A DNA stretch of 64,000 nt, taken from the IMG/VR virus record IMGVR_UViG_3300020576_002828, positions 3,017 through 67,016 of that record, one strand, 5' to 3'. The DNA comes from a virus. Its lineage: Duplodnaviria > Caudoviricetes. Below the pieces are notes generated by a model. It was not told the DNA's origin. It ran no database searches and was given only the letters and a program-made list of their open reading frames with translations. Below are positions 3,279 to 16,745 of this stretch, in pieces. Both the position numbers and the translations under genes were made by a program. The first letter of the stretch is position 1; every line of letters starts with the position of its first letter.

Positions 3279-3488
3279 ATGAAAGAACTGTTCGGCGGTC
3301 TGGACAATACTCGGGCACTGCGATACGACGGGAGGCAGATCGTATTTCGTCGTCTCCATGAAACCCGTTGGGAGATCGGGACGGTGATCCATGGCGGCAA
3401 TTCGCAATGGGGGTATGTGTCGGCACCCAGTCCGTTGGCGAATATCCATGGTGAGCAAATCGCCGTATTCATCGTCCTTCCGAGCTAA
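3279..3488 (+). CDS. hypothetical protein
   Basis: GGAG RBS. Confidence 0.65.
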   Translation: MKELFGGLDNTRALRYDGRQIVFRRLHETRWEIGTVIHGGNSQWGYVSAPSPLANIHGEQIAVFIVLPS

Positions 3489-3491
3489 CCC

Positions 3492-3785: not shown

Positions 3786-4018
3786 TGGACACCTTTCGTA
3801 TTACCTTCCGGCCTACGTTCAATTCCCCTCGTCAGACTCGCACAGTTGACGCTGAAACACTTCAATCAGCGGTGGCTATGCTTGGTCCTGTCTGGGGAAT
3901 TCAATCGTGGGAGATTCGCTGTCAGCACACCAACAAGAATTCCACCATGCAGTGCTCCCGATACTCGTCAACAAATATTTGCAATTTCCATCAACGAGTA
4001 TTGACAGCGAGTAAATAA
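3782..4018 (+). CDS. hypothetical protein
   Basis: start overlaps upstream stop. Confidence 0.55.
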   Translation: MMDTFRITFRPTFNSPRQTRTVDAETLQSAVAMLGPVWGIQSWEIRCQHTNKNSTMQCSRYSSTNICNFHQRVLTASK

Positions 4019-4028
4019 AGGGTATATT
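4001..4028 (+). promoter_or_regulatory. promoter TTGACA-N16-TATATT
   Basis: read directly. Confidence 0.65.
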
Positions 4029-4059
4029 TAAAGCATACCCTTTCACTCACGAGGTAACG

Positions 4060-4137
4060 ATGTCTGATCGTCAGGTGCGTGCAGAACAGAAGCGACTCCG
4101 GAAGGCCATGCTGCGGCTCCTGTTGTCCCTGTCCTAA
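4060..4137 (+). CDS. 25-aa basic amphipathic peptide MSDRQVRAEQKRLRKAMLRLLLSLS
   Basis: GAGG RBS, own promoter and terminator; hand-translated. Confidence 0.6.
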   Translation: MSDRQVRAEQKRLRKAMLRLLLSLS

Positions 4138-4147
4138 AACCCAATAA

Positions 4148-4175
4148 GCCCGCTCAGGTATTCACTTGGGCGGGC
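4148..4175 (+). terminator. 12-bp GC-rich hairpin
   Basis: GCCCGCTCAGGT-attc-ACTTGGGCGGGC. Confidence 0.6.
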
Positions 4176-4238
4176 AGGAGTTTTCCACCATATGGTTTAT
4201 ACCTTATGCTGTCTGTCATGTAGTTTCTACCTTCTGTT

Positions 4239-4258
4239 TTCTGCCCGTTTGTAACAAT
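4239..4258 (+). repeat. intergenic element copy 4
   Basis: exact copy. Confidence 0.9.
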
Positions 4259-4274
4259 TCTAGAAAAAACCAAC

Positions 4275-4305
4275 AACCCCCTTGACTTATGTAGCCAAGG
4301 GGGTT
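4275..4305 (-). terminator. hairpin AACCCCCTTG-N11-CAAGGGGGTT
   Basis: 10-bp stem overlapping stop of 4287-4511. Confidence 0.55.
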
Positions 4306-4511
4306 AAGGCGATCTCGGTCAACAGTCCCTGCTCGTCCACCGTGAAATTCGGCTGCTCATCGGACGGGACCACCTGAAACGATTCGCACTGCATCCACGT
4401 GCGATATTTCATATTCCCATATCGCTGAGCCTCATCCTCGGTGGCGACCACAACCCCATTGGGATAAAACTTGGGATCGTCGAACACCTTGAACTGTGCG
4501 GCAAATGCCAT
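4287..4511 (-). CDS. conserved phage hypothetical protein
   Basis: NGVVVATEDEAQRYG resembles a common small phage family. Confidence 0.7.
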   Translation of the reverse strand: MAFAAQFKVFDDPKFYPNGVVVATEDEAQRYGNMKYRTWMQCESFQVVPSDEQPNFTVDEQGLLTEIALTPLAT

Positions 4512-4515
4512 GGTA

Positions 4516-4587
4516 TCACTCCCAGAGGTGAATAGGTTCGTTGAGAGAATTCAGGAATCGACGGATGGTGACACGAATATACTTCAT
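4516..4587 (-). CDS. 23-aa coupled peptide
   Basis: ATGA overlap with 4584-4916 stop. Confidence 0.35.
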   Translation of the reverse strand: MKYIRVTIRRFLNSLNEPIHLWE

Positions 4588-4916
4588 GGTACTTCGTCCG
4601 CAGTGAGCACGGGCAGACCATGTGCGGCGGGATTCTTCAGGACTTCCATCATGGCGTCCATCTGTTCCAGCAACTTGGCCGGGGAACCCTTGAAGCCGAA
4701 TTCCGTTTTGACGATGGTGGTGCACTTCGGAGCCTTGGCGGTGAGACGCATGCCGGGATTTTTGACTTCCATCTTGAGTCCACGCCAGATCATGTGCAGA
4801 CGGAAGAAATTGACCGCCGTGGGTCCAACGAAGCTGGTCGGCACACCCTTGGCGTTGCACTGGATGTAGCTGTCGGGGCTGACCGGAATCTTGGCGTTGC
4901 GAGCGAATGCGATCAC
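4584..4916 (-). CDS. hypothetical protein
   Basis: GGAG RBS, promoter 4946-4974. Confidence 0.7.
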   Translation of the reverse strand: MIAFARNAKIPVSPDSYIQCNAKGVPTSFVGPTAVNFFRLHMIWRGLKMEVKNPGMRLTAKAPKCTTIVKTEFGFKGSPAKLLEQMDAMMEVLKNPAAHGLPVLTADEVP

Positions 4917-4945
4917 GTTGGCGTCTCCGTTGAGGTTATATAAGG

Positions 4946-4974
4946 AATATACACCGCTGTTTAAACACTGTCAA
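4946..4974 (-). promoter_or_regulatory. promoter TTGACA-N17-TATATT
   Basis: read directly. Confidence 0.65.
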
Positions 4975-5042
4975 CCCTGAATATACACGAATATTATATA
5001 CCCCCTCCCCCTATCCAAACCGGTCACTATATACCCTTCCTT

Positions 5043-5062
5043 TTCTGCCGGTTTGTAACAAT
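5043..5062 (+). repeat. intergenic element copy 5
   Basis: TTCTGCCGGTTTGTAACAAT, 1 mismatch. Confidence 0.85.
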
Positions 5063-5079
5063 TCCCATAAATACCGAAA

Positions 5080-5106
5080 CGCCCCTTGACATTGAGCCAA
5101 GGGGCG
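5080..5106 (-). terminator. hairpin CGCCCCTTG-N9-CAAGGGGCG
   Basis: 9-bp stem followed by TTTC on minus strand. Confidence 0.65.
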
Positions 5107-5156
5107 TTTACGGTTATTGCAGATTTTTGATAAGATATCTGCAAACTTATTGGCGT

Positions 5157-5411
5157 TTAGTCAGCCACAACCGAATTCGACTTCGGCTTGTTCGTGCTGC
5201 CGACCGGACGGCCACGGCCACGCTTACCCGCTTCGATCATGAACTTGGTTGACTTGGCACTCGGACGGCCACGCGGTGTGGTGATGGTGATCAAATCATC
5301 GGGAATGTTGCGCAGCGTGGCACGAACTTCCTTGAGCTTCGCCAATTCCGTTTCCTTCGTCGCGATGGCGGAATCAAGCGTATTGCGCACGTTCTGGACA
5401 GATGCAGACAT
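5157..5411 (-). CDS. coiled-coil + AT-hook DNA-binding protein (paralog 1)
   Basis: PRGRP and RGRGRPVGSTNKPK motifs, N-terminal heptad helix. Confidence 0.8.
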   Translation of the reverse strand: MSASVQNVRNTLDSAIATKETELAKLKEVRATLRNIPDDLITITTPRGRPSAKSTKFMIEAGKRGRGRPVGSTNKPKSNSVVAD

Positions 5412-5483
5412 GGTAGTTTCCTATGGTGTGTCAGGTGTTTTGGTTGCTCGGACATCGCGTTGTGCGTCTGCCCTACACAACTA

Positions 5484-5511
5484 AATCTAATCGGCCAATA
5501 TCCAATGTCAA
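5484..5511 (-). promoter_or_regulatory. promoter TTGACA-N16-TAGATT of AT-hook gene 1
   Basis: same hexamers and spacing as 13934-13961. Confidence 0.6.
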
Positions 5512-5644
5512 CAGGAAATAGGCCATTTCGTAAAGAAATTTCGTGTTTTCTTTTGCGCGTTCGTAAGTTGTTGATGTGTATACACTTAGCCCCTAAATCG
5601 CGGCGTCATTCTCACAAAGCTGCTCTAATTGACGCGTTTAGACG

Positions 5645-5672
5645 TTGACTATTGGGCCATAATGTGTATATT
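5645..5672 (+). promoter_or_regulatory. promoter TTGACT-N16-TATATT heading MRxQ cluster 1
   Basis: 32 nt upstream of first MRTQ ORF. Confidence 0.65.
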
Positions 5673-5704
5673 AAAGCATACCCTTTCACCCGTCACCCGA
5701 TATC

Positions 5705-5869
5705 ATGCGAACTCAGCATAAGATCAAGTTGGGCACCACATCACCCACCGGATATACCCGTTTGTTCAATAGTATGTATACCCGATATCACGTGTTATCC
5801 CGTATGGTATTCTGGCGGTTGGATATCCTGTATCGTCGCATACTCCATACCGACTTCATGGTCAAATGA
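5705..5869 (+). CDS. MRxQ micro-protein (MRTQ, 54 aa)
   Basis: hand-translated; first gene after promoter. Confidence 0.8.
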   Translation: MRTQHKIKLGTTSPTGYTRLFNSMYTRYHVLSRMVFWRLDILYRRILHTDFMVK

Positions 5870-6045
5870 GATACCAACGGCAGCATACCTTCGCCTACTT
5901 TGAGCACCCGTTTGATATAGTCGCGTCCAAACCCATGCTGATGAATTTCTGGCAGTTCAACGTAGTGATTAACGCCACCTTTTATGATCTGTTAGAGGCC
6001 ATGCAGTACAATAGCGTCCAACATTACTGGGTAGTCGGTCCATGA
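5866..6045 (+). CDS. MRxQ micro-protein (MRYQ, 59 aa)
   Basis: ATGA overlap. Confidence 0.8.
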   Translation: MRYQRQHTFAYFEHPFDIVASKPMLMNFWQFNVVINATFYDLLEAMQYNSVQHYWVVGP

Positions 6046-6227
6046 GATACCAAGAGAATATCACGTTACCCCCCAGTAGCACCATAGTACAGGCCATTAT
6101 GTGGTATTATAGTAATGGTAAACGGTATATGTATGATCTGTACGTCGGTCCACAAACCACTCTACATATAGCGATATTCATTACCTTTGTAAGTAAGGCA
6201 TACCTCCGGCCCTATAGCGGATCATAG
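6042..6227 (+). CDS. MRxQ micro-protein (MRYQ, 61 aa)
   Basis: ATGA overlap. Confidence 0.8.
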   Translation: MRYQENITLPPSSTIVQAIMWYYSNGKRYMYDLYVGPQTTLHIAIFITFVSKAYLRPYSGS

Positions 6228-6421
6228 TAGTAGGCAATACCCATAGTAGTCGATTTCGCATAGTAGATATCGCCTATATCGCATAGTGGCCGATCATAGT
6301 AGCCAATATATGCATAGTAGGGGATCATAGTAGTCGTTCTTGCCATAGTAGACCGATCATAGTAGCTTTACCATAGGCTATCTGTCATAGTGGCAACAAC
6401 ATAACACCCTTTTCATAGTGG
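6223..6421. repeat. CATAGT(A/G)G short-repeat tract, 11 copies
   Basis: copies at 6223, 6242, 6259, 6282, 6295, 6313, 6326, 6344, 6358, 6386, 6414. Confidence 0.9.
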
Positions 6422-6435
6422 GCGGATCATAGGCC

Positions 6436-6621
6436 ATGCGTAGTCAAGTAAACATAGAAGACGATATCATTACTACTCAGTATATTCTTCGTAGTCGCAT
6501 CATGAAGAATAGATTCTGTAACGCGATACGAATTGATTTGTTGCATACACTTAACGGTTTGGATATCAGCCTTGAAGATATCCTTGATACCATAAGCGAA
6601 GAACATAGGCACCATGCGTAG
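6436..6621 (+). CDS. MRxQ micro-protein (MRSQ, 61 aa)
   Basis: ends HA*, 8-nt overlap with next. Confidence 0.8.
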   Translation: MRSQVNIEDDIITTQYILRSRIMKNRFCNAIRIDLLHTLNGLDISLEDILDTISEEHRHHA

Positions 6622-6781
6622 TCAAGAGATCATAGCGATGCGATATACCGTAGAGCCTACCATAACACGGGCATGTCAAGATAGATCGCGTTTTCTATTT
6701 ATACATACCCCGTGGATAGATGATCAAAATACACTACATAGGATGGCACGCGATCTTGTATGGATTGTATATGGCCTATAG
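6614..6781 (+). CDS. MRxQ micro-protein (MRSQ, 55 aa)
   Basis: paralog of 6812-6982. Confidence 0.8.
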   Translation: MRSQEIIAMRYTVEPTITRACQDRSRFLFIHTPWIDDQNTLHRMARDLVWIVYGL

Positions 6782-6811
6782 TGGCATCTTCATAGTGGAG
6801 GCATCATAGCC

Positions 6812-6982
6812 ATGCGTAGTCAGGTTAGCATAGCGATCTACCCATACACAGGGATGAAACTATCAGGACTGTGTATGGGTAGATCGCCTTTTTTATTTAT
6901 GCATATCCCATGGATAGATCCTGATGATAGTCTATATTGGGTAGCACGAGGTCTAGAATGGGATATAGAGATGTCGTCATAG
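6812..6982 (+). CDS. MRxQ micro-protein (MRSQ, 56 aa)
   Basis: GGAGG RBS; paralog of 6614-6781. Confidence 0.8.
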   Translation: MRSQVSIAIYPYTGMKLSGLCMGRSPFLFMHIPWIDPDDSLYWVARGLEWDIEMSS

Positions 6983-7069
6983 TGTCATCTTCATAGCCAT
7001 TTTTACCGTAGTTGGAAGCCCATAGTGGCAACATCATAGCGCCATCTTCATAGTGAGGGCATCATACCC

Positions 7070-7264
7070 ATGCGGCAACAACACGATATTGGCTACCCAA
7101 CATGTTTTACGCAACATATTTGGAATCTGGCGTCTAAACATCCAGATTTCCATGGGTCAGCCTTCCAGAAATTATACAATCAACGACACATTAATGATCT
7201 GTTTGACCGTATAAACATCCCCATCAACGTCATCCATACTATTGATGATGCGATCTCCCTTTAA
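7070..7264 (+). CDS. MRxQ micro-protein (MRQQ, 64 aa)
   Basis: GAGG RBS. Confidence 0.8.
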   Translation: MRQQHDIGYPTCFTQHIWNLASKHPDFHGSAFQKLYNQRHINDLFDRINIPINVIHTIDDAISL

Positions 7265-7358
7265 GGATGGGGATGGTGAGGCATGGTCGCAAGTAACAAT
7301 CCAAAGAAGATCACACATAATACAATAGGCATACCCATACTCCATAAAAAGGGAATGC

Positions 7359-7544
7359 CTATAAATAGTATTTTTTACTCATAATAACACGGGAAATACC
7401 CACATGCATCTCCCACATGATATTAAACCGTACAGTGGGGCGATGCTGTCGTATGGTCCGTCGTGTGATCAACTTAATACTCTTATACAGCATATCTTCG
7501 AAAAGGTCACCAATAGCGAACGGATATGTGATCTGTTTACGCAT
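7359..7544 (-). CDS. MRxQ micro-protein (MRKQ, 61 aa)
   Basis: ATGCGTAA overlap. Confidence 0.8.
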   Translation of the reverse strand: MRKQITYPFAIGDLFEDMLYKSIKLITRRTIRQHRPTVRFNIMWEMHVGISRVIMSKKYYL

Positions 7545-7704
7545 GAGAGTATGGAATACCGGTAACGAGTCGCAACATCATCAATGCATCCAGCGTATCT
7601 GACCATAAGACTCGCTTTTTATCTGCCTCTGAAATCGAATAATATATCACGTTCTCATATCCATTCCCAACTCCGATCTTCTTACTGACATATTGTTTAC
7701 GCAT
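7537..7704 (-). CDS. MRxQ micro-protein (MRKQ, 55 aa)
   Basis: ATGCGTAA overlap. Confidence 0.8.
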   Translation of the reverse strand: MRKQYVSKKIGVGNGYENVIYYSISEADKKRVLWSDTLDALMMLRLVTGIPYSHA

Positions 7705-7879
7705 GATAGGGTGTCTCCGAATAGTCACGTCCATATACCGTACGTCGATCTACATGACCGAATACCTTATTTGCTATTATGCGATGAACCGATTGTTGTA
7801 AGACCGTGAGTGAAATGAAAAGACGTCCCTCAACGTCCCCATATATCCCTAAGTCTTTATTATATCGCTGTTTACGCAT
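7697..7879 (-). CDS. MRxQ micro-protein (MRKQ, 60 aa)
   Basis: paralog of 8207-8389. Confidence 0.8.
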   Translation of the reverse strand: MRKQRYNKDLGIYGDVEGRLFISLTVLQQSVHRIIANKVFGHVDRRTVYGRDYSETPYHA

Positions 7880-8036
7880 GAGTAATACACCAGCGGTAGA
7901 TAGTTTCGTTGGCATTCCCACTCATTAAGTTAAACCGCATAAACGGGATAGACAAGACATCCGCTACCTGATGCCAGATTTCATGTTCTTGAGGCGACAT
8001 GAACTGATGCACCATACGGAATCGCTGTTTACGCAT
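7872..8036 (-). CDS. MRxQ micro-protein (MRKQ, 54 aa)
   Basis: ATGCGTAA overlap. Confidence 0.8.
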   Translation of the reverse strand: MRKQRFRMVHQFMSPQEHEIWHQVADVLSIPFMRFNLMSGNANETIYRWCITHA

Positions 8037-8214
8037 GCTGACGTTGAACGAGGTATGCGATAGTATACACGTCGAACATAGTATCACGAAGATACCCAAA
8101 CACACGGTCTACGGCACATAATTGCGCTTTCGGTGTTTGGACATTTACACGATGATAGGTGTCTTTTTCGTATCTGGAGAGGATGCCGAGTTTATGGTAT
8201 GCTTGTTTACGCAT
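8029..8214 (-). CDS. MRxQ micro-protein (MRKQ, 61 aa)
   Basis: ATGCGTAA overlap. Confidence 0.8.
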   Translation of the reverse strand: MRKQAYHKLGILSRYEKDTYHRVNVQTPKAQLCAVDRVFGYLRDTMFDVYTIAYLVQRQHA

Positions 8215-8389
8215 TGAAGACGGCCCGTTCATAGCGTCGTCCATATACTATGTGTTGATCTACGTAGCCGAATACGAAATTGGCCATCGTCCGTACATTC
8301 GATGGATTAAATGGGGTGAGCGAACCGAAAATACGATGTTCCATGTCTCCATATATCCCCATTGTGGTGTTCTTATGTTGTTTACGCAT
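8207..8389 (-). CDS. MRxQ micro-protein (MRKQ, 60 aa)
   Basis: paralog of 7697-7879. Confidence 0.8.
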   Translation of the reverse strand: MRKQHKNTTMGIYGDMEHRIFGSLTPFNPSNVRTMANFVFGYVDQHIVYGRRYERAVFNA

Positions 8390-8564
8390 GTTTCCCCATC
8401 GCATGATAGTAATCTCGTCCGTCTGTGGTGGTGAATGCAATTTTTGAATGTACTTCATCTGCCCACTTCCGTAGTTTGCGTTGCGGGTGTGCATGGATTG
8501 ATATAAAAATAGACGCTTCCTTGGGTGAATATATGCCAAATTTGACGAAATACTGTTTCTGCAT
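8382..8564 (-). CDS. MRxQ micro-protein (MQKQ, 60 aa)
   Basis: first gene of cluster; shares GIY and GRxY with neighbours. Confidence 0.8.
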   Translation of the reverse strand: MQKQYFVKFGIYSPKEASIFISIHAHPQRKLRKWADEVHSKIAFTTTDGRDYYHAMGKHA

Positions 8565-8626
8565 ATAGGGGGAGGGGTATCCGCGTGTGGTCTATCTGAG
8601 TGTGACAAAATATTCGGGAAATATAA

Positions 8627-8686
8627 TCGGTCAAAAAGTCCACCGATTCGGTCAAAAAGTCCACCGATTCGGTCAAAAAGTCCACC
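8627..8686. repeat. 21-bp tandem repeat TCGGTCAAAAAGTCCACCGAT x ~2.9
   Basis: exact copies 8627, 8648, 8669 (partial); further TCGGTCAAAA near 8715. Confidence 0.95.
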
Positions 8687-8733
8687 TAAAAACCCCTATT
8701 TTCTGGTATACATCGGTCAAAATGACTGACCTA

Positions 8734-8952
8734 TCAAGTTAGCGTGACACGATGTGGGAGGAAGGAGTCAACATGCGCTCGCACAACACGCGTCACTTCC
8801 ATATACAAGGTATCAGAAAAGACCCCTTGGATCGGGTAATTGCACACGAGGGTGGTACTATCTACGAACACCACATTCACGGCATGGTGGCATCGATGGG
8901 TTTTCTCAAAGGCGTCCATGATACCAAGAAGATGTTGTCGTTGTTTTCTCAT
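8734..8952 (-). CDS. MRxQ micro-protein (MRKQ, 72 aa)
   Basis: ATGA overlap; paralog of 9077-9295. Confidence 0.8.
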   Translation of the reverse strand: MRKQRQHLLGIMDAFEKTHRCHHAVNVVFVDSTTLVCNYPIQGVFSDTLYMEVTRVVRAHVDSFLPHRVTLT

Positions 8953-9080
8953 GAGTGACGTATATACCGATGTACTGCCGCAAAGATTCGAAAGGATTGA
9001 TACAACGTCCACCAGAAAGTATATCCTCTAGGTACTATATACTCAATGGCGTAATACAACACAGGAGTTTGTTTTCTCAT
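8949..9080 (-). CDS. MRxQ micro-protein (MRKQ, 43 aa)
   Basis: ATGA overlaps at both ends. Confidence 0.75.
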   Translation of the reverse strand: MRKQTPVLYYAIEYIVPRGYTFWWTLYQSFRIFAAVHRYIRHS

Positions 9081-9295
9081 GGAAGACCCCCACGCAGTAC
9101 GCCCACGAGGTAGCTACGCATCCCTCGAATCACCCCGGCATATAACTCATCATAAAACGTCATCGGAATAGGGCGTGTACACCGAAGTTGAAAGGTCGCG
9201 ACATTAGAATATGCAACATTCACGCTGTGCCGAAGCCGATGCTGCCATTCCATGTATTCCATAAAGCCCATCTGATGTGCGGATTGTTTTCTCAT
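9077..9295 (-). CDS. MRxQ micro-protein (MRKQ, 72 aa)
   Basis: paralog of 8734-8952. Confidence 0.8.
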   Translation of the reverse strand: MRKQSAHQMGFMEYMEWQHRLRHSVNVAYSNVATFQLRCTRPIPMTFYDELYAGVIRGMRSYLVGVLRGGLP

Positions 9296-9414
9296 GACCG
9301 GAGGGTGGTATGGAGTGCGAGTTGGAGTATAAGACAAATATACTCCAAATGGTTCCGTGTACAGAAGAACGGTGTCGGCAATAATGGGATATGGCGGATG
9401 GTCTGGTAGGTCAT
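9292..9414 (-). CDS. MRxQ-family micro-protein (MTYQ, 40 aa)
   Basis: ATGA overlaps at both ends. Confidence 0.7.
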   Translation of the reverse strand: MTYQTIRHIPLLPTPFFCTRNHLEYICLILQLALHTTLRS

Positions 9415-9587
9415 GGTAGTACTAATCCCTTCCACAGCGCATGTTGCAGGGTAGGAAAGAAATATGGACCAAGTCGCCAACTCCGAGATAGCCGGTCCCA
9501 GAGCTTCCGATGCCATGAAGTAGACGTAATCTCATCACCAGACAGGAAGAACACCACATACCGAGGGTGATACTTCTGTTTTCTCAT
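9411..9587 (-). CDS. MRxQ micro-protein (MRKQ, 58 aa)
   Basis: ATGA overlaps. Confidence 0.8.
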   Translation of the reverse strand: MRKQKYHPRYVVFFLSGDEITSTSWHRKLWDRLSRSWRLGPYFFPTLQHALWKGLVLP

Positions 9588-9748
9588 GAGCGGATCACCC
9601 CGAACAGCCGGTGATTTTCTGAAAAGAGCAAGAAGGTGGGATGGGTATAATGTAACCTATACCATAGATGGGTCAACCCATTTGGTGTGAGTGTGACCGC
9701 ACGATGAAAGCGATAAGGATGATGGATGGCGAGGGTTTGGTGTCTCAT
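9584..9748 (-). CDS. MRxQ micro-protein (MRHQTLAI, 54 aa)
   Basis: ATGA overlaps. Confidence 0.8.
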   Translation of the reverse strand: MRHQTLAIHHPYRFHRAVTLTPNGLTHLWYRLHYTHPTFLLFSENHRLFGVIRS

Positions 9749-9909
9749 GAAAAAATATCGTAGATGGCCCACCGCAGATCGGTTATATAGGTATCACTCT
9801 GTTGCAATACACTAGAAAAACAGATCTTATTCCAGACATTGCGGTGAAACTGCGTCGGGGAGATGATCGCAAATGTACTATGACGGATGGCAAGGGTTTG
9901 GTGTCTCAT
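9745..9909 (-). CDS. MRxQ micro-protein (MRHQTLAI, 54 aa)
   Basis: ATGA overlaps. Confidence 0.8.
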   Translation of the reverse strand: MRHQTLAIRHSTFAIISPTQFHRNVWNKICFSSVLQQSDTYITDLRWAIYDIFS

Positions 9910-10070
9910 GAGCCTATAGGTCGCTGCATCCCATACATGACAGTCCGATGGGTACCGAACCATAATTGATAAAAGATCTTATCCCAGATCAGACGATGAT
10001 ATGACGTAGGGGTGATCTGAGCACAATCTGTTAAGGTACGACGACGGATAGTAAGGGTTTGCCGTCTCAT
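9906..10070 (-). CDS. MRxQ micro-protein (MRRQTLTI, 54 aa)
   Basis: ATGA overlap downstream. Confidence 0.8.
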   Translation of the reverse strand: MRRQTLTIRRRTLTDCAQITPTSYHRLIWDKIFYQLWFGTHRTVMYGMQRPIGS

Positions 10071-10178
10071 GATAAAAGAGGGGTGGTGATCCGAGTAATC
10101 AGCCGCCAGAGTTCCCATTTTTGCATGGTTGCATCTGACCGGTTCCACTTCTGATAAAAGAACCGTTTACGATCTCAT
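10067..10178 (-). pseudogene. broken array unit (ATG AGA TCG TAA at junction; orphan open frame)
   Basis: junction ATG followed by TAA at the Gln4 position; frame of the upstream gene stays open past its TGA to the next ATGA junction. Confidence 0.55.
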
Positions 10179-10336
10179 TTGGGGAAGACCGTCCAATAAA
10201 AATCGACAAAGATCCGAAACTGAGGAACTTTCAGTTGGAACGCGTATCGGACGTATGGGTTATCGTCGGGGAGTATCGGAAGGTATGGAGATATCATACA
10301 CCGTCTAATCCATGGATTTTGGGTTTGTCGTCTCAT
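10175..10336 (-). CDS. MRxQ micro-protein (MRRQ, 53 aa)
   Basis: ATGA overlap. Confidence 0.75.
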   Translation of the reverse strand: MRRQTQNPWIRRCMISPYLPILPDDNPYVRYAFQLKVPQFRIFVDFYWTVFPK

Positions 10337-10485
10337 AGGACAAAGACATAGTTATGGACGCTCCATCGAAACATAACGATCTCTGTAAAGAAACGCAAAT
10401 ACGCCGGATAGTATGCAGACCACACGGCTGGAAACTTGGTGGTGGTAGGTAGGGACCGGTCGAAACAGATGCGTTGCTGTCTCAT
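10333..10485 (-). CDS. MRxQ micro-protein (MRQQ, 50 aa)
   Basis: ATGA overlaps. Confidence 0.8.
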   Translation of the reverse strand: MRQQRICFDRSLPTTTKFPAVWSAYYPAYLRFFTEIVMFRWSVHNYVFVL

Positions 10486-10646
10486 GTGAAGAACAACGTA
10501 TGTGTGATACCGTCACGAGCCATCACCGTAATCGTCATAAGGCGTCTATATATTGCGAATCGACGTTGATGATGTTGCACCAACTGAGAGAGGGTTTGGT
10601 TCAGGTGGGTATACATCAAATATCGACGATTGGTTTGCTGTCTCAT
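10482..10646 (-). CDS. MRxQ micro-protein (MRQQ, 54 aa)
   Basis: ATGA overlaps. Confidence 0.8.
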   Translation of the reverse strand: MRQQTNRRYLMYTHLNQTLSQLVQHHQRRFAIYRRLMTITVMARDGITHTLFFT

Positions 10647-10810
10647 CGGTTGTGTAGATCGACAATATGACTCCACAATATCTCAAACCGTAACACCGCA
10701 AAAAATCTCCATAGCAGGTTATTGGTGGTATACCGGTAAAATGCGGAGTTTTCTGGTATGTCGGCGATGAGATGTTGCCGACGACTGATGGCAAGCGTTT
10801 GGTGTCTCAT
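10643..10810 (-). CDS. MRxQ micro-protein (MRHQTLAI, 55 aa)
   Basis: ATGA overlaps. Confidence 0.8.
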   Translation of the reverse strand: MRHQTLAISRRQHLIADIPENSAFYRYTTNNLLWRFFAVLRFEILWSHIVDLHNR

Positions 10811-10959
10811 GAGAAGTGACGAACTTGAATGATCCACCACAAGATATTCCGAAGCCCACTGAATTGCCCGATGATATTGGGGGTAGTGAGATTGAACCAC
10901 CAATAAAACTCGTTGGGGTGGTGTCGGGCGTTAAGAATATTGAAACGTTGATGTCTCAT
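10807..10959 (-). CDS. MRxQ micro-protein (MRHQ, 50 aa)
   Basis: ATGA overlaps. Confidence 0.8.
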   Translation of the reverse strand: MRHQRFNILNARHHPNEFYWWFNLTTPNIIGQFSGLRNILWWIIQVRHFS

Positions 10960-11120
10960 CGGAATGTACTCTTAGCAACGAACTGACCAGACTCTTTGAC
11001 ATACCATATGAGAAGTTTAACCCGAAAGAGGGCATGGCATAATGTCTGGTACATATACCACTGAGGGGTAGACGCGGTGTTACAGTAGCCGACTTCAATC
11101 CGAAGAGTCTGCTGTCTCAT
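10956..11120 (-). CDS. MRxQ micro-protein (MRQQ, 54 aa)
   Basis: ATGA overlaps. Confidence 0.8.
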   Translation of the reverse strand: MRQQTLRIEVGYCNTASTPQWYMYQTLCHALFRVKLLIWYVKESGQFVAKSTFR

Positions 11121-11269
11121 GGTCGTCGGATAACGCGTCGGAGGGTGACCCGCATTCGCCACTGTTGCATGATGCCGGGATGATACCAATCCCCGATCAC
11201 ATCATAGAACGGTATCCAGACGATGCCGGTGAGAATCGGTTTGAGGGTGTAAAGCTGTTGTAGACGCAT
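11117..11269 (-). CDS. MRxQ micro-protein (MRLQ, 50 aa)
   Basis: start lies inside upstream ORF whose junction stop is lost. Confidence 0.75.
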   Translation of the reverse strand: MRLQQLYTLKPILTGIVWIPFYDVIGDWYHPGIMQQWRMRVTLRRVIRRP

Positions 11270-11423
11270 TAGTAATACTAACCCACCCCGCATCCCATCG
11301 CAAGGCACCCATGAGTTGACCGATGGGAGTTGTGTATACGATTCGTGCGTAATTAACAATATGTTCTAATATACCATCGGTTTCGAAATGCGTCCGAATT
11401 GGACATCGATGTTGGTGTCTCAT
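11202..11423 (-). CDS. MRxQ micro-protein (MRHQ, 73 aa, C-terminally extended)
   Basis: reads through junction ...TNA-S. Confidence 0.75.
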   Translation of the reverse strand: MRHQHRCPIRTHFETDGILEHIVNYARIVYTTPIGQLMGALRWDAGWVSITNASTTALHPQTDSHRHRLDTVL

Positions 11424-11593
11424 GAAAATAGTTCGACAAACATACTTCCACAGATATCATTAATCTCGTCTGGGCGGAATGCGTTATAAATGTGACTGCG
11501 TATCTCGGAGGGGACCGACAGCCAAATCGCATCCCAGTTGGCATACATCGGTTTATGGCGAAGCGCGGTATATAGAGAGCGTTGCTGTCTCAT
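11420..11593 (-). CDS. MRxQ micro-protein (MRQQ, 57 aa)
   Basis: ATGA overlaps. Confidence 0.8.
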   Translation of the reverse strand: MRQQRSLYTALRHKPMYANWDAIWLSVPSEIRSHIYNAFRPDEINDICGSMFVELFS

Positions 11594-11778
11594 GGGCGGC
11601 GTACTATAGTATCTGTGATGGCGCGAGAGACATCAACTCGCACAACGGACTTCACACTTTTGAGTGCCAACAGCGGATTGGTGATGGTATATACGTCAGA
11701 GCGCCAACCGATGGTGGTCTTCCGGTGTATGCTCACCCAGTTAGGACGGTATACCTGCACATAATGTTGGTGTCTCAT
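11590..11778 (-). CDS. MRxQ micro-protein (MRHQ, 62 aa)
   Basis: ATGA overlaps. Confidence 0.8.
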   Translation of the reverse strand: MRHQHYVQVYRPNWVSIHRKTTIGWRSDVYTITNPLLALKSVKSVVRVDVSRAITDTIVRRP

Positions 11779-11954
11779 AGTTCGATCCATATACGCATCG
11801 CAGCGCCCATAGAATGTATTGAGATACGTTTAAACGCAAACAGTGGTTCTAGTATGACGTACATATCATATCGTATTGAACTATGGGTGGCACATCGAAT
11901 GCAATCCCATATTGATTCGGTTGTGTATACGCTAATTCGACGTTGGTGTCTCAT
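11775..11954 (-). CDS. MRxQ micro-protein (MRHQ, 59 aa)
   Basis: ATGA overlaps. Confidence 0.8.
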   Translation of the reverse strand: MRHQRRISVYTTESIWDCIRCATHSSIRYDMYVILEPLFAFKRISIHSMGAAMRIWIEL

Positions 11955-12112
11955 CGATGCACACTCTGCCATAGTGCTGCCGTGACCCCTACTTCCACAA
12001 GATCATCCGTCGTACGATAGATGGCTACGCGCACTTCCAGTTCACTATAGGCTTTTATCTGTCGCCATAATGAAGGAGATGCACCCACTGAACTGATCGA
12101 TTGGCGTCTCAT
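11951..12112 (-). CDS. MRxQ micro-protein (MRRQ, 53 aa)
   Basis: ATGA overlaps. Confidence 0.8.
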   Translation of the reverse strand: MRRQSISSVGASPSLWRQIKAYSELEVRVAIYRTTDDLVEVGVTAALWQSVHR

Positions 12113-12258
12113 CGGAAAATACGCTCCCATGAAATATTATCGTGGGATAAATCGGGTATGCGGATGATGGGCTGACGCATAATGACCTTCCAGTATCGAA
12201 TGCGAAGATGCACTAGATAATACTGTCGTACGGTGCGAATACACGATTGATGTCTCAT
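12109..12258 (-). CDS. MRxQ micro-protein (MRHQ, 49 aa)
   Basis: ATGA overlaps. Confidence 0.8.
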   Translation of the reverse strand: MRHQSCIRTVRQYYLVHLRIRYWKVIMRQPIIRIPDLSHDNISWERIFR

Positions 12259-12431
12259 GTGGACGGGCGATGAGTATAGGTCTGTAACGTAAAGATGATG
12301 GTGATAATCGATCCACATGTGCGTTGAACGCCAACGGCGATGCGGTGGGCGACATATGTATCGACAGGAATCATCTCACGACAGTGTAATTCTGTCCAGA
12401 GGATGGTGCGGTTGACGGGTTGGCGTCTCAT
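12255..12431 (-). CDS. MRxQ micro-protein (MRRQ, 58 aa)
   Basis: ATGA overlaps. Confidence 0.8.
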   Translation of the reverse strand: MRRQPVNRTILWTELHCREMIPVDTYVAHRIAVGVQRTCGSIITIIFTLQTYTHRPST

Positions 12432-12619
12432 TTAGACCACCACCGGTATAGGGACGTGAGCTTCCCACGGAGCGTATTGATGTGTATCTGGATCGGATGC
12501 TGCACACCATAGTATGCACGGTTACGTAATCGGTAAGCAACCCGACGAGACACCGGCATCATACTATCGCGGTAAATGTTGATGAAGATGTCTTCCCAGA
12601 CGTTGTGTTGTTTGCGCAT
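12428..12619 (-). CDS. MRxQ micro-protein (MRKQ, 63 aa)
   Basis: 28-nt gap upstream, ATGA overlap downstream. Confidence 0.8.
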   Translation of the reverse strand: MRKQHNVWEDIFINIYRDSMMPVSRRVAYRLRNRAYYGVQHPIQIHINTLRGKLTSLYRWWSK

Positions 12620-12647
12620 CCCTGAAACCTAACCCGTACCCGATGAA

Positions 12648-12842
12648 TCACAAGATGGGAATCGTGATCCGGTGTCTAATCTCGTTGGTGGGTGGGAGGC
12701 GAGTGTGAAAATAACGAGTAATCTTCCGGCGATATACAACTAGTGGATGATTCCATATGGTATACGGAAAATCCACACCAGCATACACTCTACCCCGCAC
12801 CCTACCAGAAACCCGTTCAGACAGATTCTGTTGTTTAGTCAT
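12648..12842 (-). CDS. MRxQ-family micro-protein (MTKQ, 64 aa)
   Basis: ATGACTAA overlap. Confidence 0.75.
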   Translation of the reverse strand: MTKQQNLSERVSGRVRGRVYAGVDFPYTIWNHPLVVYRRKITRYFHTRLPPTNEIRHRITIPIL

Positions 12843-13017
12843 ATGACCCAAAGTGAGCGATCCAGTCAGGTGTTGGATACCGTGAAATGGAAACAATGAA
12901 TACTGCTTTCCACGGATAATTCCACGCGAGACTATATATGTCAGCGTCTCTATTGTATATACGTGCCCGCATCTGATCTTTTATATAACTGATGGGGATA
13001 TTCGTCTGGTTACGCAT
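12835..13017 (-). CDS. MRxQ micro-protein (MRNQ, 60 aa)
   Basis: ATGCGTAA overlap. Confidence 0.8.
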   Translation of the reverse strand: MRNQTNIPISYIKDQMRARIYNRDADIYSLAWNYPWKAVFIVSISRYPTPDWIAHFGSYD

Positions 13018-13189
13018 AATAACGGTACATGAGTTGATAATAACCTCGCACGCGTGTCAACATCAGCGTGATAGGACGTGTCTTGGCATCGACGCGATGA
13101 TCAATAGCTCTGATAAATGGTACCCGACTATCCTTGGTAAACAACGGAATAGCTGGTGTGATGTTACTGATGGCGGTTTGAACGCGCAT
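13010..13189 (-). CDS. MRxQ micro-protein (MRVQ, 59 aa)
   Basis: start inside upstream ORF whose junction stop is lost. Confidence 0.75.
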   Translation of the reverse strand: MRVQTAISNITPAIPLFTKDSRVPFIRAIDHRVDAKTRPITLMLTRVRGYYQLMYRYYA

Positions 13190-13325
13190 AGTCTTCAACG
13201 AGATATCGGAAAATCCAGTACCGATGGGAAAACAGGTTGTTTACCAATGGCTGAGGTACACGGTATTGCACTATTGAAAACAACCGCCGAGTGCTAATAC
13301 CAGACACATACTGTTGGTTACGCAT
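13164..13325 (-). CDS. MRxQ micro-protein (MRNQ, 53 aa)
   Basis: reads through junction ...DYA-R. Confidence 0.75.
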   Translation of the reverse strand: MRNQQYVSGISTRRLFSIVQYRVPQPLVNNLFSHRYWIFRYLVEDYARSNRHQ

Positions 13326-13515
13326 AAAACTTGGCCATCACGTCGATTTTAATGTCCATCAACGATACCACGAAGCGACCGAGTGGCAGCTTTATCTTTA
13401 GTTGTTCCACACCAGCCAAGAATATCGTCACGTCGCGTGGGAATCTGGAATCGGTGATGGAATAGAATGATGGCCGCATCGTTCCTACTGATCGACAGAG
13501 GGCCTGTTTACACAT
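13318..13515 (-). CDS. MRxQ-family micro-protein (MCKQ, 65 aa)
   Basis: ATGTGTAA overlap. Confidence 0.75.
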   Translation of the reverse strand: MCKQALCRSVGTMRPSFYSITDSRFPRDVTIFLAGVEQLKIKLPLGRFVVSLMDIKIDVMAKFYA

Positions 13516-13714
13516 CCGGATCACCCATCCAACTCCAAAAATGAACCCACAGAGGGCGTAGAACCGTATTCCATGTATCATCCCAAATCGGTTCGTCCAC
13601 ATCGGCACTGATTTTACACCATATCAGTTCAGTCGTCTGACTATATGCCCGATCTTGAATAGCGAGAAGGAAACGCGTCGACTGATTAAATTTCCGGAGT
13701 CGTTGGTTACGCAC
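13508..13714 (-). CDS. MRxQ micro-protein (GTG start, RNQ, 68 aa)
   Basis: GTGCGTAA overlap. Confidence 0.75.
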   Translation of the reverse strand: MRNQRLRKFNQSTRFLLAIQDRAYSQTTELIWCKISADVDEPIWDDTWNTVLRPLWVHFWSWMGDPDV

Positions 13715-13913
13715 GAGTAGATATGGGGATGGACCGACAGTATGAAATTAAATCGGCGTCGAAAATATTACTGACGTATAACTGCAGAGAACGATTGGCC
13801 GGGATGCCGAGGCCAGCGATATACCCGATCAAATATGGTGGGGTGATCCATCGCGGCGAAATACCGCATACTACAGTGTTGCGAGGCCGAAACGCGGTTG
13901 TCTGGGTGCGCAT
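13707..13913 (-). CDS. MRxQ micro-protein (MRTQ, 68 aa)
   Basis: first gene after leftward promoter. Confidence 0.8.
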   Translation of the reverse strand: MRTQTTAFRPRNTVVCGISPRWITPPYLIGYIAGLGIPANRSLQLYVSNIFDADLISYCRSIPISTRA

Positions 13914-13933
13914 GGGATGATGGATAGGTGTCC

Positions 13934-13965
13934 TTGACAATACTCCAATACTTCGTAGATTGCAA
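13934..13965. promoter_or_regulatory. overlapping divergent promoters: TTGACA-N16-TAGATT (+) and TTGCAA-N17-TATTGT (-)
   Basis: + hexamers 13934-39 and 13956-61; - hexamers 13965-60 and 13942-37. Confidence 0.65.
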
Positions 13966-14007
13966 GAGTGGACCAGTAGGTGCATTCACCTCTTTCTTTT
14001 TCATACC

Positions 14008-14586
14008 ATGGATACGATCAACGAACTACTCTCTACCGTGGATAAGCAGATTGCCCAAGGCACTGCTGAACTGGCGATACTGAAAACGGCCAAACGCCAG
14101 TTGGACGCCATTCCATCCGATGGACCCGTCCGTGATACCCCGCCCAAGAAACGTGCGGGTCGACCCAAGGGATCGAAGAATCTGACCCCGGCTGAACGTG
14201 TGAATAAGAAAGCGGCCAAGCCATCATCCACGGGGCGTCCAAAGGGTCGACCGAAGGGATCGAAAAATCTGACCCCGGCTGAACGGGAAGCCCGCAAGTT
14301 GGCGAAGAAGGCGGGATCGATGGTGTCAGCCGCTACATCATCGGATGTCGAGTTGGCCGAAGTCAGTGCACCCGTTGAACCGTCGCCCATCATCGATCAG
14401 TCCGCACCGGTAGTAGAATCTGCCGCACCATCCAGCCCATGGTCCCCGCCATCGGATGCCGTGGTTGAAACGCCGTATGCACCGGAAGTGGTCGACGAAG
14501 AAGCCCCGTCTGCCCCTATGTATATGGAACAGCCGACCGCAGGATTCCAGAGCAAGGAAGATCTGTTGAACGCTTCGCAGCAGTAG
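14008..14586 (+). CDS. coiled-coil + AT-hook DNA-binding protein (paralog 2) with Pro/Ala/acidic tail
   Basis: two GRPKGSKNLTPAER repeats plus GRPK; N-terminal helix like 5157-5411. Confidence 0.8.
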   Translation: MDTINELLSTVDKQIAQGTAELAILKTAKRQLDAIPSDGPVRDTPPKKRAGRPKGSKNLTPAERVNKKAAKPSSTGRPKGRPKGSKNLTPAEREARKLAKKAGSMVSAATSSDVELAEVSAPVEPSPIIDQSAPVVESAAPSSPWSPPSDAVVETPYAPEVVDEEAPSAPMYMEQPTAGFQSKEDLLNASQQ

Positions 14587-14599
14587 GGGTCACGTAGAT

Positions 14600-14626
14600 A
14601 TGGGCATGGAGAATAACCGTGCCCAT
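14600..14626 (+). other. hairpin between AT-hook gene and tRNA
   Basis: ATGGGCATGG-N7-CCGTGCCCAT. Confidence 0.5.
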
Positions 14627-14632
14627 TCTATT

Positions 14633-14706
14633 GGTCTGGTAGCTTAGTCGGTTAAAGCGCCTGACTCATAATCAGGGGATCGTGGGTTCAAGTCCCACCC
14701 AGACCA
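14633..14706 (+). tRNA. tRNA-CAU (elongator Met or Ile2), CCA not encoded
   Basis: acceptor GGTCTGG/CCAGACC, anticodon arm CCTGA-CTCATAA-TCAGG, T arm GTGGG-TTCAAGT-CCCAC; G1-C72 excludes initiator. Confidence 0.93.
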
Positions 14707-14709
14707 CTT

Positions 14710-14916
14710 ATGCGCACACAAGAGAATCTCTCATTTAGTGTATCGGTACAACCGAACATCGATATATACCAAGCCTACCGCGTAGCAAGTCGTATTCATC
14801 CGGTCGCAGACGTGGCATATGATACATGCATTTCAACCCGAACAGAAAATAGTAAGCTGTCTCGCTGGACACATGAAGTACGGATAGATCTCAAAGAGGC
14901 GTTGTTCGATGCGTAA
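14710..14916 (+). CDS. MRxQ micro-protein (MRTQ, 68 aa)
   Basis: starts 3 nt after tRNA. Confidence 0.8.
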   Translation: MRTQENLSFSVSVQPNIDIYQAYRVASRIHPVADVAYDTCISTRTENSKLSRWTHEVRIDLKEALFDA

Positions 14917-15094
14917 TCAAAAACTTCAAATATACACCATCGAACTTAGACCCCATAGTATATTGACAGACGCGGTTATGCGTCGTCATCCCGGCTTTTG
15001 GACACGTCTGTATAACCAAGCGCCGATTAAACAGACACCGTGGAAGCATTGGGTGTCGGGTATACCGGGATACGACGGAAGCTTTCATGCGTAA
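14909..15094 (+). CDS. MRxQ micro-protein (MRNQ, 61 aa)
   Basis: ATGCGTAA overlap. Confidence 0.8.
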   Translation: MRNQKLQIYTIELRPHSILTDAVMRRHPGFWTRLYNQAPIKQTPWKHWVSGIPGYDGSFHA

Positions 15095-15263
15095 ACAGAT
15101 CTTACTATCAGACAATATCGACCTAGAACAGCATACACAATTACATCGTACCTTCGGTCGTATCGCATGGCAGCGTGTAGAAAAACATGCCCCATTCCGT
15201 ACACTCAAATGGGCATCAGCCATGATTGTGCCGATACGATTAAAAGTATTTTTTCATGCGTAG
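15087..15263 (+). CDS. MRxQ micro-protein (MRKQ, 58 aa)
   Basis: ATGCGTAA overlap. Confidence 0.8.
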   Translation: MRKQILLSDNIDLEQHTQLHRTFGRIAWQRVEKHAPFRTLKWASAMIVPIRLKVFFHA

Positions 15264-15489
15264 ACAACTCTCACGAATCTATCGTATAGATGTAAAGTTG
15301 CATATAGAGATCATGAATCAATATTACACTCGCGACAAACAACGGTGGGTGTTGGAACGAAGTGTCGTGTATCGTAGTTCTGACATATACGATCATCCAT
15401 CACAGATTGTGATGCATCGTAGTTCTGACATATACGATGCATCACAGATTGTGATGCCAGTATTATTTTATATTCAACGCCATGCGTAA
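15256..15489 (+). CDS. MRxQ micro-protein (MRRQ, 77 aa, internal duplication)
   Basis: ATGCGTAG overlap. Confidence 0.8.
   Translation: MRRQLSRIYRIDVKLHIEIMNQYYTRDKQRWVLERSVVYRSSDIYDHPSQIVMHRSSDIYDASQIVMPVLFYIQRHA
15371..15458 (+). repeat. in-frame ~45-bp tandem duplication
   Basis: ATCGTAGTTCTGACATATACGAT..CATCACAGATTGTGATGC twice. Confidence 0.9.
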
Positions 15490-15679
15490 ACAAGACCTGT
15501 TGAGCAAGGTGTTGGTGAAACAAATAGAATATGACACCCACAATCAGTTATCCTCACGTGCGAGAGTGACAAGGGGATGGTGGTGGAATAGTTATAGCTA
15601 TATATGTCAACCCGAACGTAGGTTGCGTGAAGTAATGGAAGATCTATACGAACGCTTCTTTTTTGACCACGATGCGTGA
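15482..15679 (+). CDS. MRxQ micro-protein (MRKQ, 65 aa)
   Basis: ATGCGTAA overlap. Confidence 0.8.
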   Translation: MRKQDLLSKVLVKQIEYDTHNQLSSRARVTRGWWWNSYSYICQPERRLREVMEDLYERFFFDHDA

Positions 15680-15848
15680 ACAGCGATCCGTTATTCAGCT
15701 TACCCGACTGCTACGAATTCGGTATTATATCCCAACAGTAATGCACTATAAGGGAAGTAAACGGATGTTGCAAAAATATCTACGGGTGGCCGATGTGCTG
15801 CGGAGTTCGAAGTTCTCCATTATAACACACATTATACACGATGTGTAA
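15672..15848 (+). CDS. MRxQ micro-protein (MREQ, 58 aa)
   Basis: ATGCGTGA overlap. Confidence 0.8.
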   Translation: MREQRSVIQLTRLLRIRYYIPTVMHYKGSKRMLQKYLRVADVLRSSKFSIITHIIHDV

Positions 15849-16032
15849 GCAGAGGTCAGTTAAATACCCCGTCGAACACGGAACGCATAATACGTTGATG
15901 ACTGAATATAGTATGCATGATCCAAAACATCGTCTTGAACGTGCGGTGGCGGATCGTATGGAGTATGACGTGCCCGCTGTTAACAACAGTGTGATAGTTA
16001 TGCTCCACTTAGAGGCGTATCCTCTTGCGTGA
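15841..16032 (+). CDS. MRxQ-family micro-protein (MCKQ, 63 aa)
   Basis: ATGTGTAA overlap. Confidence 0.8.
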   Translation: MCKQRSVKYPVEHGTHNTLMTEYSMHDPKHRLERAVADRMEYDVPAVNNSVIVMLHLEAYPLA

Positions 16033-16201
16033 ACAACAGCTACTCACCTATCCCATCGAACACGTTACCCATAGAACGTTGTGTAATATCTATTATACAC
16101 GTGATCCAAAAGCGTTGATAGAATCGTATATACTGACGTACATGGATAACGGGGGAGATTTGCGTTCCCTTGCAGCGATAGCCTTTGATATGGTGAAGTG
16201 A
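16025..16201 (+). CDS. MRxQ micro-protein (TTG start, REQ, 58 aa)
   Basis: TTGCGTGA overlap; homologous to both neighbours. Confidence 0.75.
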   Translation: MREQQLLTYPIEHVTHRTLCNIYYTRDPKALIESYILTYMDNGGDLRSLAAIAFDMVK

Positions 16202-16374
16202 TGCGTAAACAAATACTACTTACACATCCCGTCGTATACAAAACGCACCATATCTTGTATACGGCATATACCAAATGTGATCCGGAATACAAGTTGCGCA
16301 TCTATATGATGACGGATCGAATATTTACAATCGGCAGTGCGATTCATTCGTTTACGAATTTAATCCATGCGTAA
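16201..16374 (+). CDS. MRxQ micro-protein (MRKQ, 57 aa)
   Basis: TGATG overlap. Confidence 0.8.
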   Translation: MRKQILLTHPVVYKTHHILYTAYTKCDPEYKLRIYMMTDRIFTIGSAIHSFTNLIHA

Positions 16375-16552
16375 CCAACACGTTATAACACAAGGGGTGG
16401 ATATCACTCTGCATAACAAAGGGTTTGATGCATTTTGTACTAAATATGAAAACGCATTTATTCTCTTACACCGTTTATACGATCACGACATATATCACTT
16501 GCGAGATACAACCATTGAAGTAGAAGAATTCATATACGACCTCTATGCATAA
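16367..16552 (+). CDS. MRxQ micro-protein (MRNQ, 61 aa)
   Basis: ATGCGTAA overlap. Confidence 0.8.
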   Translation: MRNQHVITQGVDITLHNKGFDAFCTKYENAFILLHRLYDHDIYHLRDTTIEVEEFIYDLYA

Positions 16553-16745
16553 ACAAACATCTCTACAACGTGACGTGGTACTCATGACACATATGAAGCT
16601 ATATGGAAATCATCAAATCTATATGACTCCTGATATGTGGTCATACCTCAAAACTGTGGTCATATCACGTCAACCGGCGCATGCTCTGTTAGGACGGAGT
16701 GAGGTAAAAACACACATATCTGCGCAAGCTCCGTCGCCCATGTAA
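16545..16745 (+). CDS. MRxQ-family micro-protein (MHKQ, 66 aa)
   Basis: ATGCATAA overlap. Confidence 0.75.
   Translation: MHKQTSLQRDVVLMTHMKLYGNHQIYMTPDMWSYLKTVVISRQPAHALLGRSEVKTHISAQAPSPM

Follow-up and report, generated by a model that had tools for sequence, protein, structure and literature searches.

The present analysis concerns an array of small genes in a 64-kb window of a 67-kb IMG/VR virus record derived from a large uncultured phage; the window is the whole stretch of DNA that was analysed, and all coordinates are window positions. The record is 31% complete according to CheckV, so that the whole phage should measure roughly 200 kb. Between positions 5705 and 16745, the window carries 55 chained open reading frames (ORFs) of 40–77 codons, arranged in three blocks (A, B, and C; Table 1). 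Each of them starts with NTG-NNN-NNN-CAR and hence encodes Gln at position 4, the prevailing N-terminus being Met-Arg-x-Gln (MRxQ). The large genes of the window include those for ThyX, a dNMP kinase, an HD/tRNA-nucleotidyltransferase-like protein, a clamp-loader-like ATPase, and a GP88-family protein. A set of 44 large genes of the same window was used for comparison of starts and Shine–Dalgarno (SD) words. None of the 44 has an MRxQ start, thus the motif is specific to the family and is not a general start rule of the phage. Outside the array, an ORF in a sugar-gene region (49957-50292, minus strand) has a possible MRQQ start at the ATG at 50292, although its start is ambiguous. The product would be acidic and 111 residues long, and a single such case is compatible with chance.

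The likeness among the units is concentrated at their start. In an alignment of the 55 products, M1 and Q4 are the sole invariant columns at a mean column identity of 10%; R2 is conserved at 90% and Q4 at 100%, and relative entropy is at background from residue 5 onward. An all-against-all BLASTP of the units links just a few small subfamilies. At the DNA level, bases 10-11 are CA in 55/55 units, base 12 is always a purine (A in 40, G in 15; C or T never), and base 5 is G in 51. Codon 4 is accordingly CAA in 40 units and CAG in 15, with no CAC or CAT, while the ORF bodies hold 151 His codons vs. 101 Gln codons; given the usage of CAN codons in the bodies, the probability of 55/55 CAR is ~1e-22. 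The word ATGMGNNNNCAR occurs 51 times in the window as compared to 9.2 ± 3.0 times in shuffled sequences, and 47 of the 51 copies are unit starts. A chance origin of the start motif is excluded. A chain finder that is blind to the motif and uses just ATG, ORF size, and stop–start overlap recovers chains with 44/55 units, and in each chain all members that follow its arbitrary first ORF turned out to be MxxQ. Three long gaps interrupt the array (208, 169, and 104 nt); they contain repeats and stops in all frames and no motif-less units. Together, these two results leave little room for ascertainment bias.

An earlier, sequence-only reading of this DNA had proposed that Gln4 is invariant at the protein level and not at the DNA level. 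This proposal stands. It had listed seven CAG positions, all of which are correct within the full count of 15, and had noted the complete absence of His. Arg2 indeed draws on two codon families, AGA (23) and CGN (32, namely, CGT 25, CGC 5, CGA 1, and CGG 1). AGA is used where the ATGA overlap forces A at base 4, CGN is used elsewhere, and AGY (Ser) is never seen at codon 2 in the 68 units of the two genomes now available (see below). In the same 68 units, codon 4 is CAA in 49, CAG in 19, and CAY in none, whereas His codons are common at codon 3 (12/68). CAA and CAG flip between orthologues, e.g., between the unit at 6812 and its counterpart at 6526 in the related contig L025. The reading had also stated that Gln4 survives replacement of residue 2 and of the start codon, and every coordinate and exception proved accurate: residue 2 is T at 9414 and 12842, C at 13515 and 15841, H at 16545, and Q at 8564, and the units at 13714 and 16025 begin with GTG and TTG, respectively, with Gln4 kept in all of these cases.

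Coupling between neighbouring units does not account for Gln4 either, as had been argued. The stop of one unit overlaps the start of the next by 4 nt (ATGA) at 25 junctions and by 8 nt (ATGCGTAA, ATGCGTAG, or ATGCGTGA) at 17, i.e., at 42/52 junctions in total. The 8-nt overlap accounts for T6, A7 or G7, and A8 or G8, hence for CGT at codon 2 and, at residue 3, for Lys, Asn, Ser, Arg, or Glu. Since this overlap reaches no further than base 8, bases 10-12 are left unexplained by coupling. Moreover, the motif is present in uncoupled first cistrons (5705, 6436, 6812, 7070, 13913, 12619, 10070, 8564, and 14710), which sit behind promoter-like gaps, short leaders, or a tRNA and have no upstream stop. 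This makes a pure reinitiation cue, one of the roles suggested by the sequence-only reading, unlikely. A pure effect of A/C-rich composition was rejected, since such a model favours C over G at base 12, where G makes up 28% and C 0%. Taken together, the data support the view that it is the residues Met-Arg-x-Gln, or the way in which they are decoded, that selection acts on, and not a DNA word.

A relative of the array was found on an 8,479-bp metagenome contig, L025, which was retrieved with a 26-mer from an array gap. The contig is syntenic with window positions 867-8730; the flanks are 85–90% identical, whereas the array is 70–80% identical or unalignable. It contains 13 chained units in two orthologous blocks (5603-6975, block A; 7069-8421, block B). 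Frequent His at position 4 in a homologous array, which would speak against a protein-level constraint, was looked for; in L025, Gln4 is found in 13/13 units (CAA 9, CAG 4). Orthologue pairs between the window and L025 have 44–68% protein identity with intact frames, and the content of units differs between the two phages, with units replaced. Over the first 12 nt, nine orthologue pairs show 94% identity, yet 8/9 differ at codon 5, which places a constant head directly against a variable body. Synonymous sites in codons 2–4 are 89% identical between orthologues vs. ~50% further in. As an observation in its own right, third-base identity at codon 5 is 0.11 vs. ~0.5 further in for the same nine pairs, and the residue directly after Gln4 seems, as judged from these pairs, to be hypervariable. 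A single similarity break was found ~18–21 nt after a unit start in this one genome pair.

Further relatives are few. A profile of one subfamily was compared with 1.84 billion representatives and returned four proteins, which come from contigs of 47,015, 8,479, and 13,107 bp. Those homologues with an intact N-terminus have MRKQ or MQKQ at the aligned start, and a further search added MRHQ and MRRQ orthologues. Neither an excess of MRxQ nor chains were found in two ThyX-related phage records (55–57% identity; one of 168 kb and 93% complete, one of 50 kb). Megablast against 50,697 phage records from GenBank gave no array-like DNA. DNA scans for the triple motif across IMG/VR and 185,579 prokaryote genomes (one per species) yielded no diverged ORF chain; apart from one repetitive protein gene, they matched tandem repeats that were identical or of short period. 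Peptide-pattern searches of viral contigs and metagenome contigs produced no match, and word-indexed protein searches with all 55 units, and with one block C unit, returned the window's own proteins alone. Pfam-A matched 0/55 units and PHROGs 1/55, at an E value of 0.005; no PDB sequence was better than E 0.9, and the ESM Atlas gave no usable match for the units. The MRxQ family thus appears to be real, fast-evolving, and confined to a narrow lineage.

Several properties indicate that the units are expressed as proteins. All 55 frames are open from one start to the next, with precisely overlapping stops; open frames over 55 stretches of ~58 codons by accident are vanishingly unlikely. In a codon-usage score, the proposed frame is the best on average and in 31/55 units when compared with the five other frames. 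Predicted mRNA folding is weaker from 0 to +40 (-4.0 vs. about -5.8 kcal/mol on either side). In subfamily A2, Gly11 is spelled GGG, GGC, GGT, and GGA, and Glu17 GAA and GAG. Homologues encoded on additional metagenome contigs keep their frames intact. The products have a median isoelectric point (pI) of 9.75, with a pI above 8 in 43/55. Arg, His, Tyr, Trp, and Ile are abundant in them, Lys, His, or Arg occupies residue 3 in most, and Cys amounts to 1.1% vs. ~3% expected from random codons, a depletion that is also seen in real proteins. The ratio of nonsynonymous to synonymous substitutions is saturated among paralogues; among orthologues, it is noisy, from 0.3 to 1.3, with a pooled value of ~0.44. 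As far as the sequence can tell, the 55 ORFs are genuine genes; they form a lineage-restricted family that evolves very fast and encodes small, mostly basic proteins. The notion that they are instead a decayed ~170-bp tandem DNA repeat with accidentally open frames draws on the unusual amino-acid make-up (low Lys, Glu, Gly, and Ala), the weak codon-usage signal, and the low-confidence structure models discussed below. It is hardly credible in view of the open frames and exact junctions, their preservation in a second phage, the spelling of conserved residues with several codons, and the depletion of Cys. Three other explanations of the locus were rejected: recoded stop codons, because units end with TGA as well as TAA and TAG; a frameshifted polyprotein, because one type of junction shifts the frame in the opposite direction to the other; and an antisense gene, because the 168-aa ORF at 11479-11985 matches no family.

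Table 1. The three blocks of the MRxQ array and the elements within and next to them (window positions).
Feature	Positions	Strand	Description
Block A	5705..7264	+	7 units: 5705, 5866, 6042, 6436, 6614, 6812, 7070; all MRxQ
Gap in block A	6228..6435	+	208 nt; packed with CATAGTRG words, stops in all frames
Block B	7359..13913	-	37 units, read from 13913 down to 7359; 8-nt ATGCGTAA or 4-nt ATGA junctions
Block B gaps	12648-12619, 10175-10070, 8734-8564	-	
Gap in block B	8565..8733	-	169 nt; 3 x 21-bp direct repeat at 8627-8689 over promoter-like TTGACC-16-TATTTT
Block C	14710..16745	+	11 units, nearly all with 8-nt overlaps
Promoter-like site	5645..5672	+	TTGACT-16-TATATT, located 33 nt before block A's first ATG; consensus match only
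tRNA, anticodon CAU	14633..14707	+	its end lies 2 nt ahead of block C's first ATG; no CCA encoded
AT-hook-type gene	14038..14586	+	contains the GRPKGSKNLTPAER repeat twice; precedes the tRNA and block C, divergent from block B
Small AT-hook-type gene	5157..5411	-	RGRP words; divergent from block A

The blocks differ in detail. The first three units of block A are coupled through ATGA, and the later ones are preceded by short leaders in which CATAGTRG words abound. There are ~14 copies of this word (often ATCATAGTAG) in the uncoupled gaps and leaders of the block, at 6215-6435 and 6965-7066, and they could be binding sites of a regulator. The leader form ...ATCATAGSCC-ATG of block A is present in L025, too. 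In block B, the 21-bp repeat of the 8565-8733 gap reads GGTGGACTTTTTGACCGAATC on the minus strand and lies ahead of the uncoupled MQKQ unit at 8564; the gap is partly kept in L025, with a common 26-mer and ~81% identity over 180 nt. Sigma-70-like promoter words occur at array gaps, although most large genes of the phage have no SD word. The block C subfamily has the consensus MRxQ..L....TH..L. One of its units (15256-15489) contains a 45-nt internal duplication at 15363-15438 (RSSDIYD...SQIVM), which makes it the longest unit of all, at 77 aa.

Among the neighbouring elements, the two AT-hook-type genes each stand head-to-head with one MRxQ block, and both are preceded by the promoter-like pair TTGACA-16-TAGATT (5484-5511, minus strand; 13934-13961, plus strand). 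The tRNA ahead of block C has a G1-C72 pair, and its anticodon stem lacks a run of three G-C pairs; this marks it as an elongator-Met or Ile2 type and not an initiator. A 59-nt direct repeat of 76% identity is found at 4228-4286 and 5032-5090, and the second copy contributes to a hairpin of terminator-like form, whose stem measures 14 bp (5109 to 5077, minus strand).

Comparison with known systems was carried out along four lines. The T-even internal proteins IPI, IPII, and IPIII carry the T4 capsid-targeting sequence (CTS) (PMC3012670, PMC9026906). Like the array products, they are small basic proteins with unrelated, fast-changing bodies and a short common N-terminus, which in T4 is read by one machine, and their genes, like the array units, sit in a variable locus. 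The array shares the small size and basic character (40–77 aa, median pI 9.75), but has three of the first four residues fixed instead of a tag of ~10 residues, and consists of 55 chained genes instead of a handful. The CTS ends in a Leu/Ile-x-Glu cut site, and an [LI]xE site was found in the first 25 residues of just 6/68 units. Given these differences in tag length and cut site, the array is no member of the CTS family; the CTS may nevertheless be regarded as its nearest functional analogy. A cut of the 3C-like type after Gln was rejected, as residue 5 is mostly Thr, Arg, or His and not a small residue.

Another point of comparison is provided by the promoter-early stem-loop (PeSL) cassettes in the hyperplastic regions of T4-type phages (PMC2839356, PMC4122927). 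Both systems comprise many small orphan genes and a short repeated sequence in a plastic region. In the PeSL regions, this sequence bounds genes that are gained, lost, and swapped between close relatives; for the array, the content of units differs in the one genome pair compared, with a single similarity break 18–21 nt past a start. However, PeSL is an intergenic promoter with a terminator hairpin, whereas the array repeats its first four codons, and their variation follows the genetic code. No PeSL-type intergenic promoter and stem-loop was found between the units, most junctions of which overlap, with promoter-like sites in a few gaps. Stop–start coupling by ATGA-type overlap is a general feature of bacterial and phage operons, and in the sense that a stop overlaps or abuts the next start it applies to the 42 junctions counted above. 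In contrast to ordinary coupling, no SD sequence lies inside the upstream gene (no purine-rich word at -14 to -6, with G the rarest base near the start), and the uncoupled first cistrons carry the identical start.

The Q-rule of Bacteroidetes, in which signal peptidase I exposes a Gln that is then cyclised to pyroglutamate (PMC5837995, PMC10653852), resembles the array in having a near-invariant Gln close to the N-terminus of otherwise unrelated proteins. It needs a Sec signal peptide of ~20 residues, however, while the Gln of the array is residue 4. No signal peptide or membrane segment was recognised in the units: a 9-residue hydropathy of 2.0 is reached in just 2/68, and no 15-residue window reaches 1.8. 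The absence of a Sec-type signal weakens the secretion role that had been among the functions proposed for the motif. On these comparisons, the array was rated as belonging with phage multigene arrays of small proteins that have a common terminal tag.

The explanation that we favour, with a probability of roughly 0.4, is that the basic micro-proteins form a fast-evolving library in which the four-residue start serves as a common N-terminal handle. One shared reader would recognise the free N-terminus; it could be a device for packaging or ejection, an enzyme that modifies the proteins, a protease, or a factor that acts in their turnover. The handle would consist of a Met that is retained because Arg2 blocks its removal, one or two basic residues, and then Gln4. 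From residue 5 onward, the bodies would be free to diversify and would be gained and lost as cassettes. Transcription would start from a few promoter-like gaps, and within sub-blocks ribosomes would pass from gene to gene through the 4- or 8-nt stop–start overlaps without SD sites. Several points weigh against this explanation. A targeting signal of just four residues would be very short. Among the genes that flank the array, none was found to have a protease, chaperone, or transferase domain, with ~31% of the genome in hand. Two AlphaFold2 models of one subfamily reached a predicted local distance difference test (pLDDT) score of just 58–60 and thus lend no structural support. There is also a nucleotide layer to the conservation: C is preferred at -1 in both junction classes (32/55), bases 4-14 are A/C-rich, codon 3 is AAA in 22 units and AAG in 1, and CAA is enriched at codon 4 (73% vs. 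53–56% elsewhere, p ~0.02).

It is this nucleotide layer that brings in the main rival explanation, a start-site optimum. In this case, efficient initiation, reinitiation, or early elongation in these chains without SD sites would depend on the codons or on the nascent fMet-Arg-x-Gln, and the completed proteins would have no use for a tag. We regard this explanation as possible, if still unlikely. It would make sense of the lack of an SD sequence upstream of any unit together with a preference for pyrimidine at -2 and -1, of the A/C-rich tract and weak folding at unit starts, of the high identity of synonymous sites in codons 2–4 between orthologues, and of the bias to AAA and CAA. Yet the 44 large genes mostly lack an SD sequence as well (a GGAG, GAGG, or AGGA word lies upstream of just 8/44) and have varied start residues, and the retention of the motif in uncoupled first cistrons shows that it is not specific to reinitiation. 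We know of no established bacterial initiation rule that demands Gln at codon 4, and model bacteria do not favour AGA as early in a gene as codon 2. Alternatively, Arg2 and Gln4 might serve the proteins' own activity, e.g., as a basic arm that touches nucleic acid, and be the sole ancestral residues that all paralogues need. The small, basic, Arg-, His-, Tyr-, and Trp-rich products, the Lys, His, or Arg that mostly occupies residue 3, and the AT-hook genes that head two blocks are in line with this idea. It appears improbable all the same: no fold or further motif common to paralogues across subfamilies is detectable, no RHH-like or other DNA-binding family was matched in profile searches of the units, and one activity exerted via two residues on unrelated bodies is hard to picture.

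More improbable still is a requirement for the nucleic-acid word itself, with ATG-MGN-NNN-CAR kept as a microhomology for cassette recombination, as in PeSL, or as the target site of a regulator that binds RNA or of a nuclease. The gain, loss, and replacement of units between the window and L025, the one similarity break shortly past a start, and the near-identity of the first 12-mer between orthologues would all suit such a word. It would require, though, that base 6 depend on base 4 in an ad hoc manner (A with A; C with T, C, A, or G) and that base 12 be restricted to purine, in a word of which just 8/12 bases are fixed. In addition, the coupled junctions have no conserved flank, and pattern scans elsewhere detected no such word arrays. 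The handle is therefore ranked first, the start-site optimum second, the residues' own activity third, the nucleic-acid word fourth, and the non-gene explanation last.

Returning to the handle as the preferred explanation, one may ask whether it is part of something wider. Large phages might carry tagged micro-protein libraries, i.e., tens of chained and quickly diversifying mini-genes with a lineage-specific N-terminal address of 2–5 residues, here fMet-Arg-x-Gln; we consider this generalisation rather doubtful at present. A dedicated phage or host machine would read the address, e.g., for virion loading, modification, or timed destruction. If this is true, no example would be larger or cleaner than the MRxQ array, and its codons would prove that the tag is recognised in the form of protein. 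If, on the other hand, the motif reflects a requirement of the start site, it would be a rare case of an obligatory amino acid or codon at position 4 in the absence of an SD sequence. In both cases, ~5% of a large phage genome can be devoted to orphan micro-proteins that evolve faster than their surroundings with three N-terminal residues fixed. Should the address be real, it would represent an undescribed strategy by which a phage manages, through a single reader, small effectors that are numerous and readily changed, and the same first residues on chained micro-genes would offer a simple rule for finding such sets in metagenomes.

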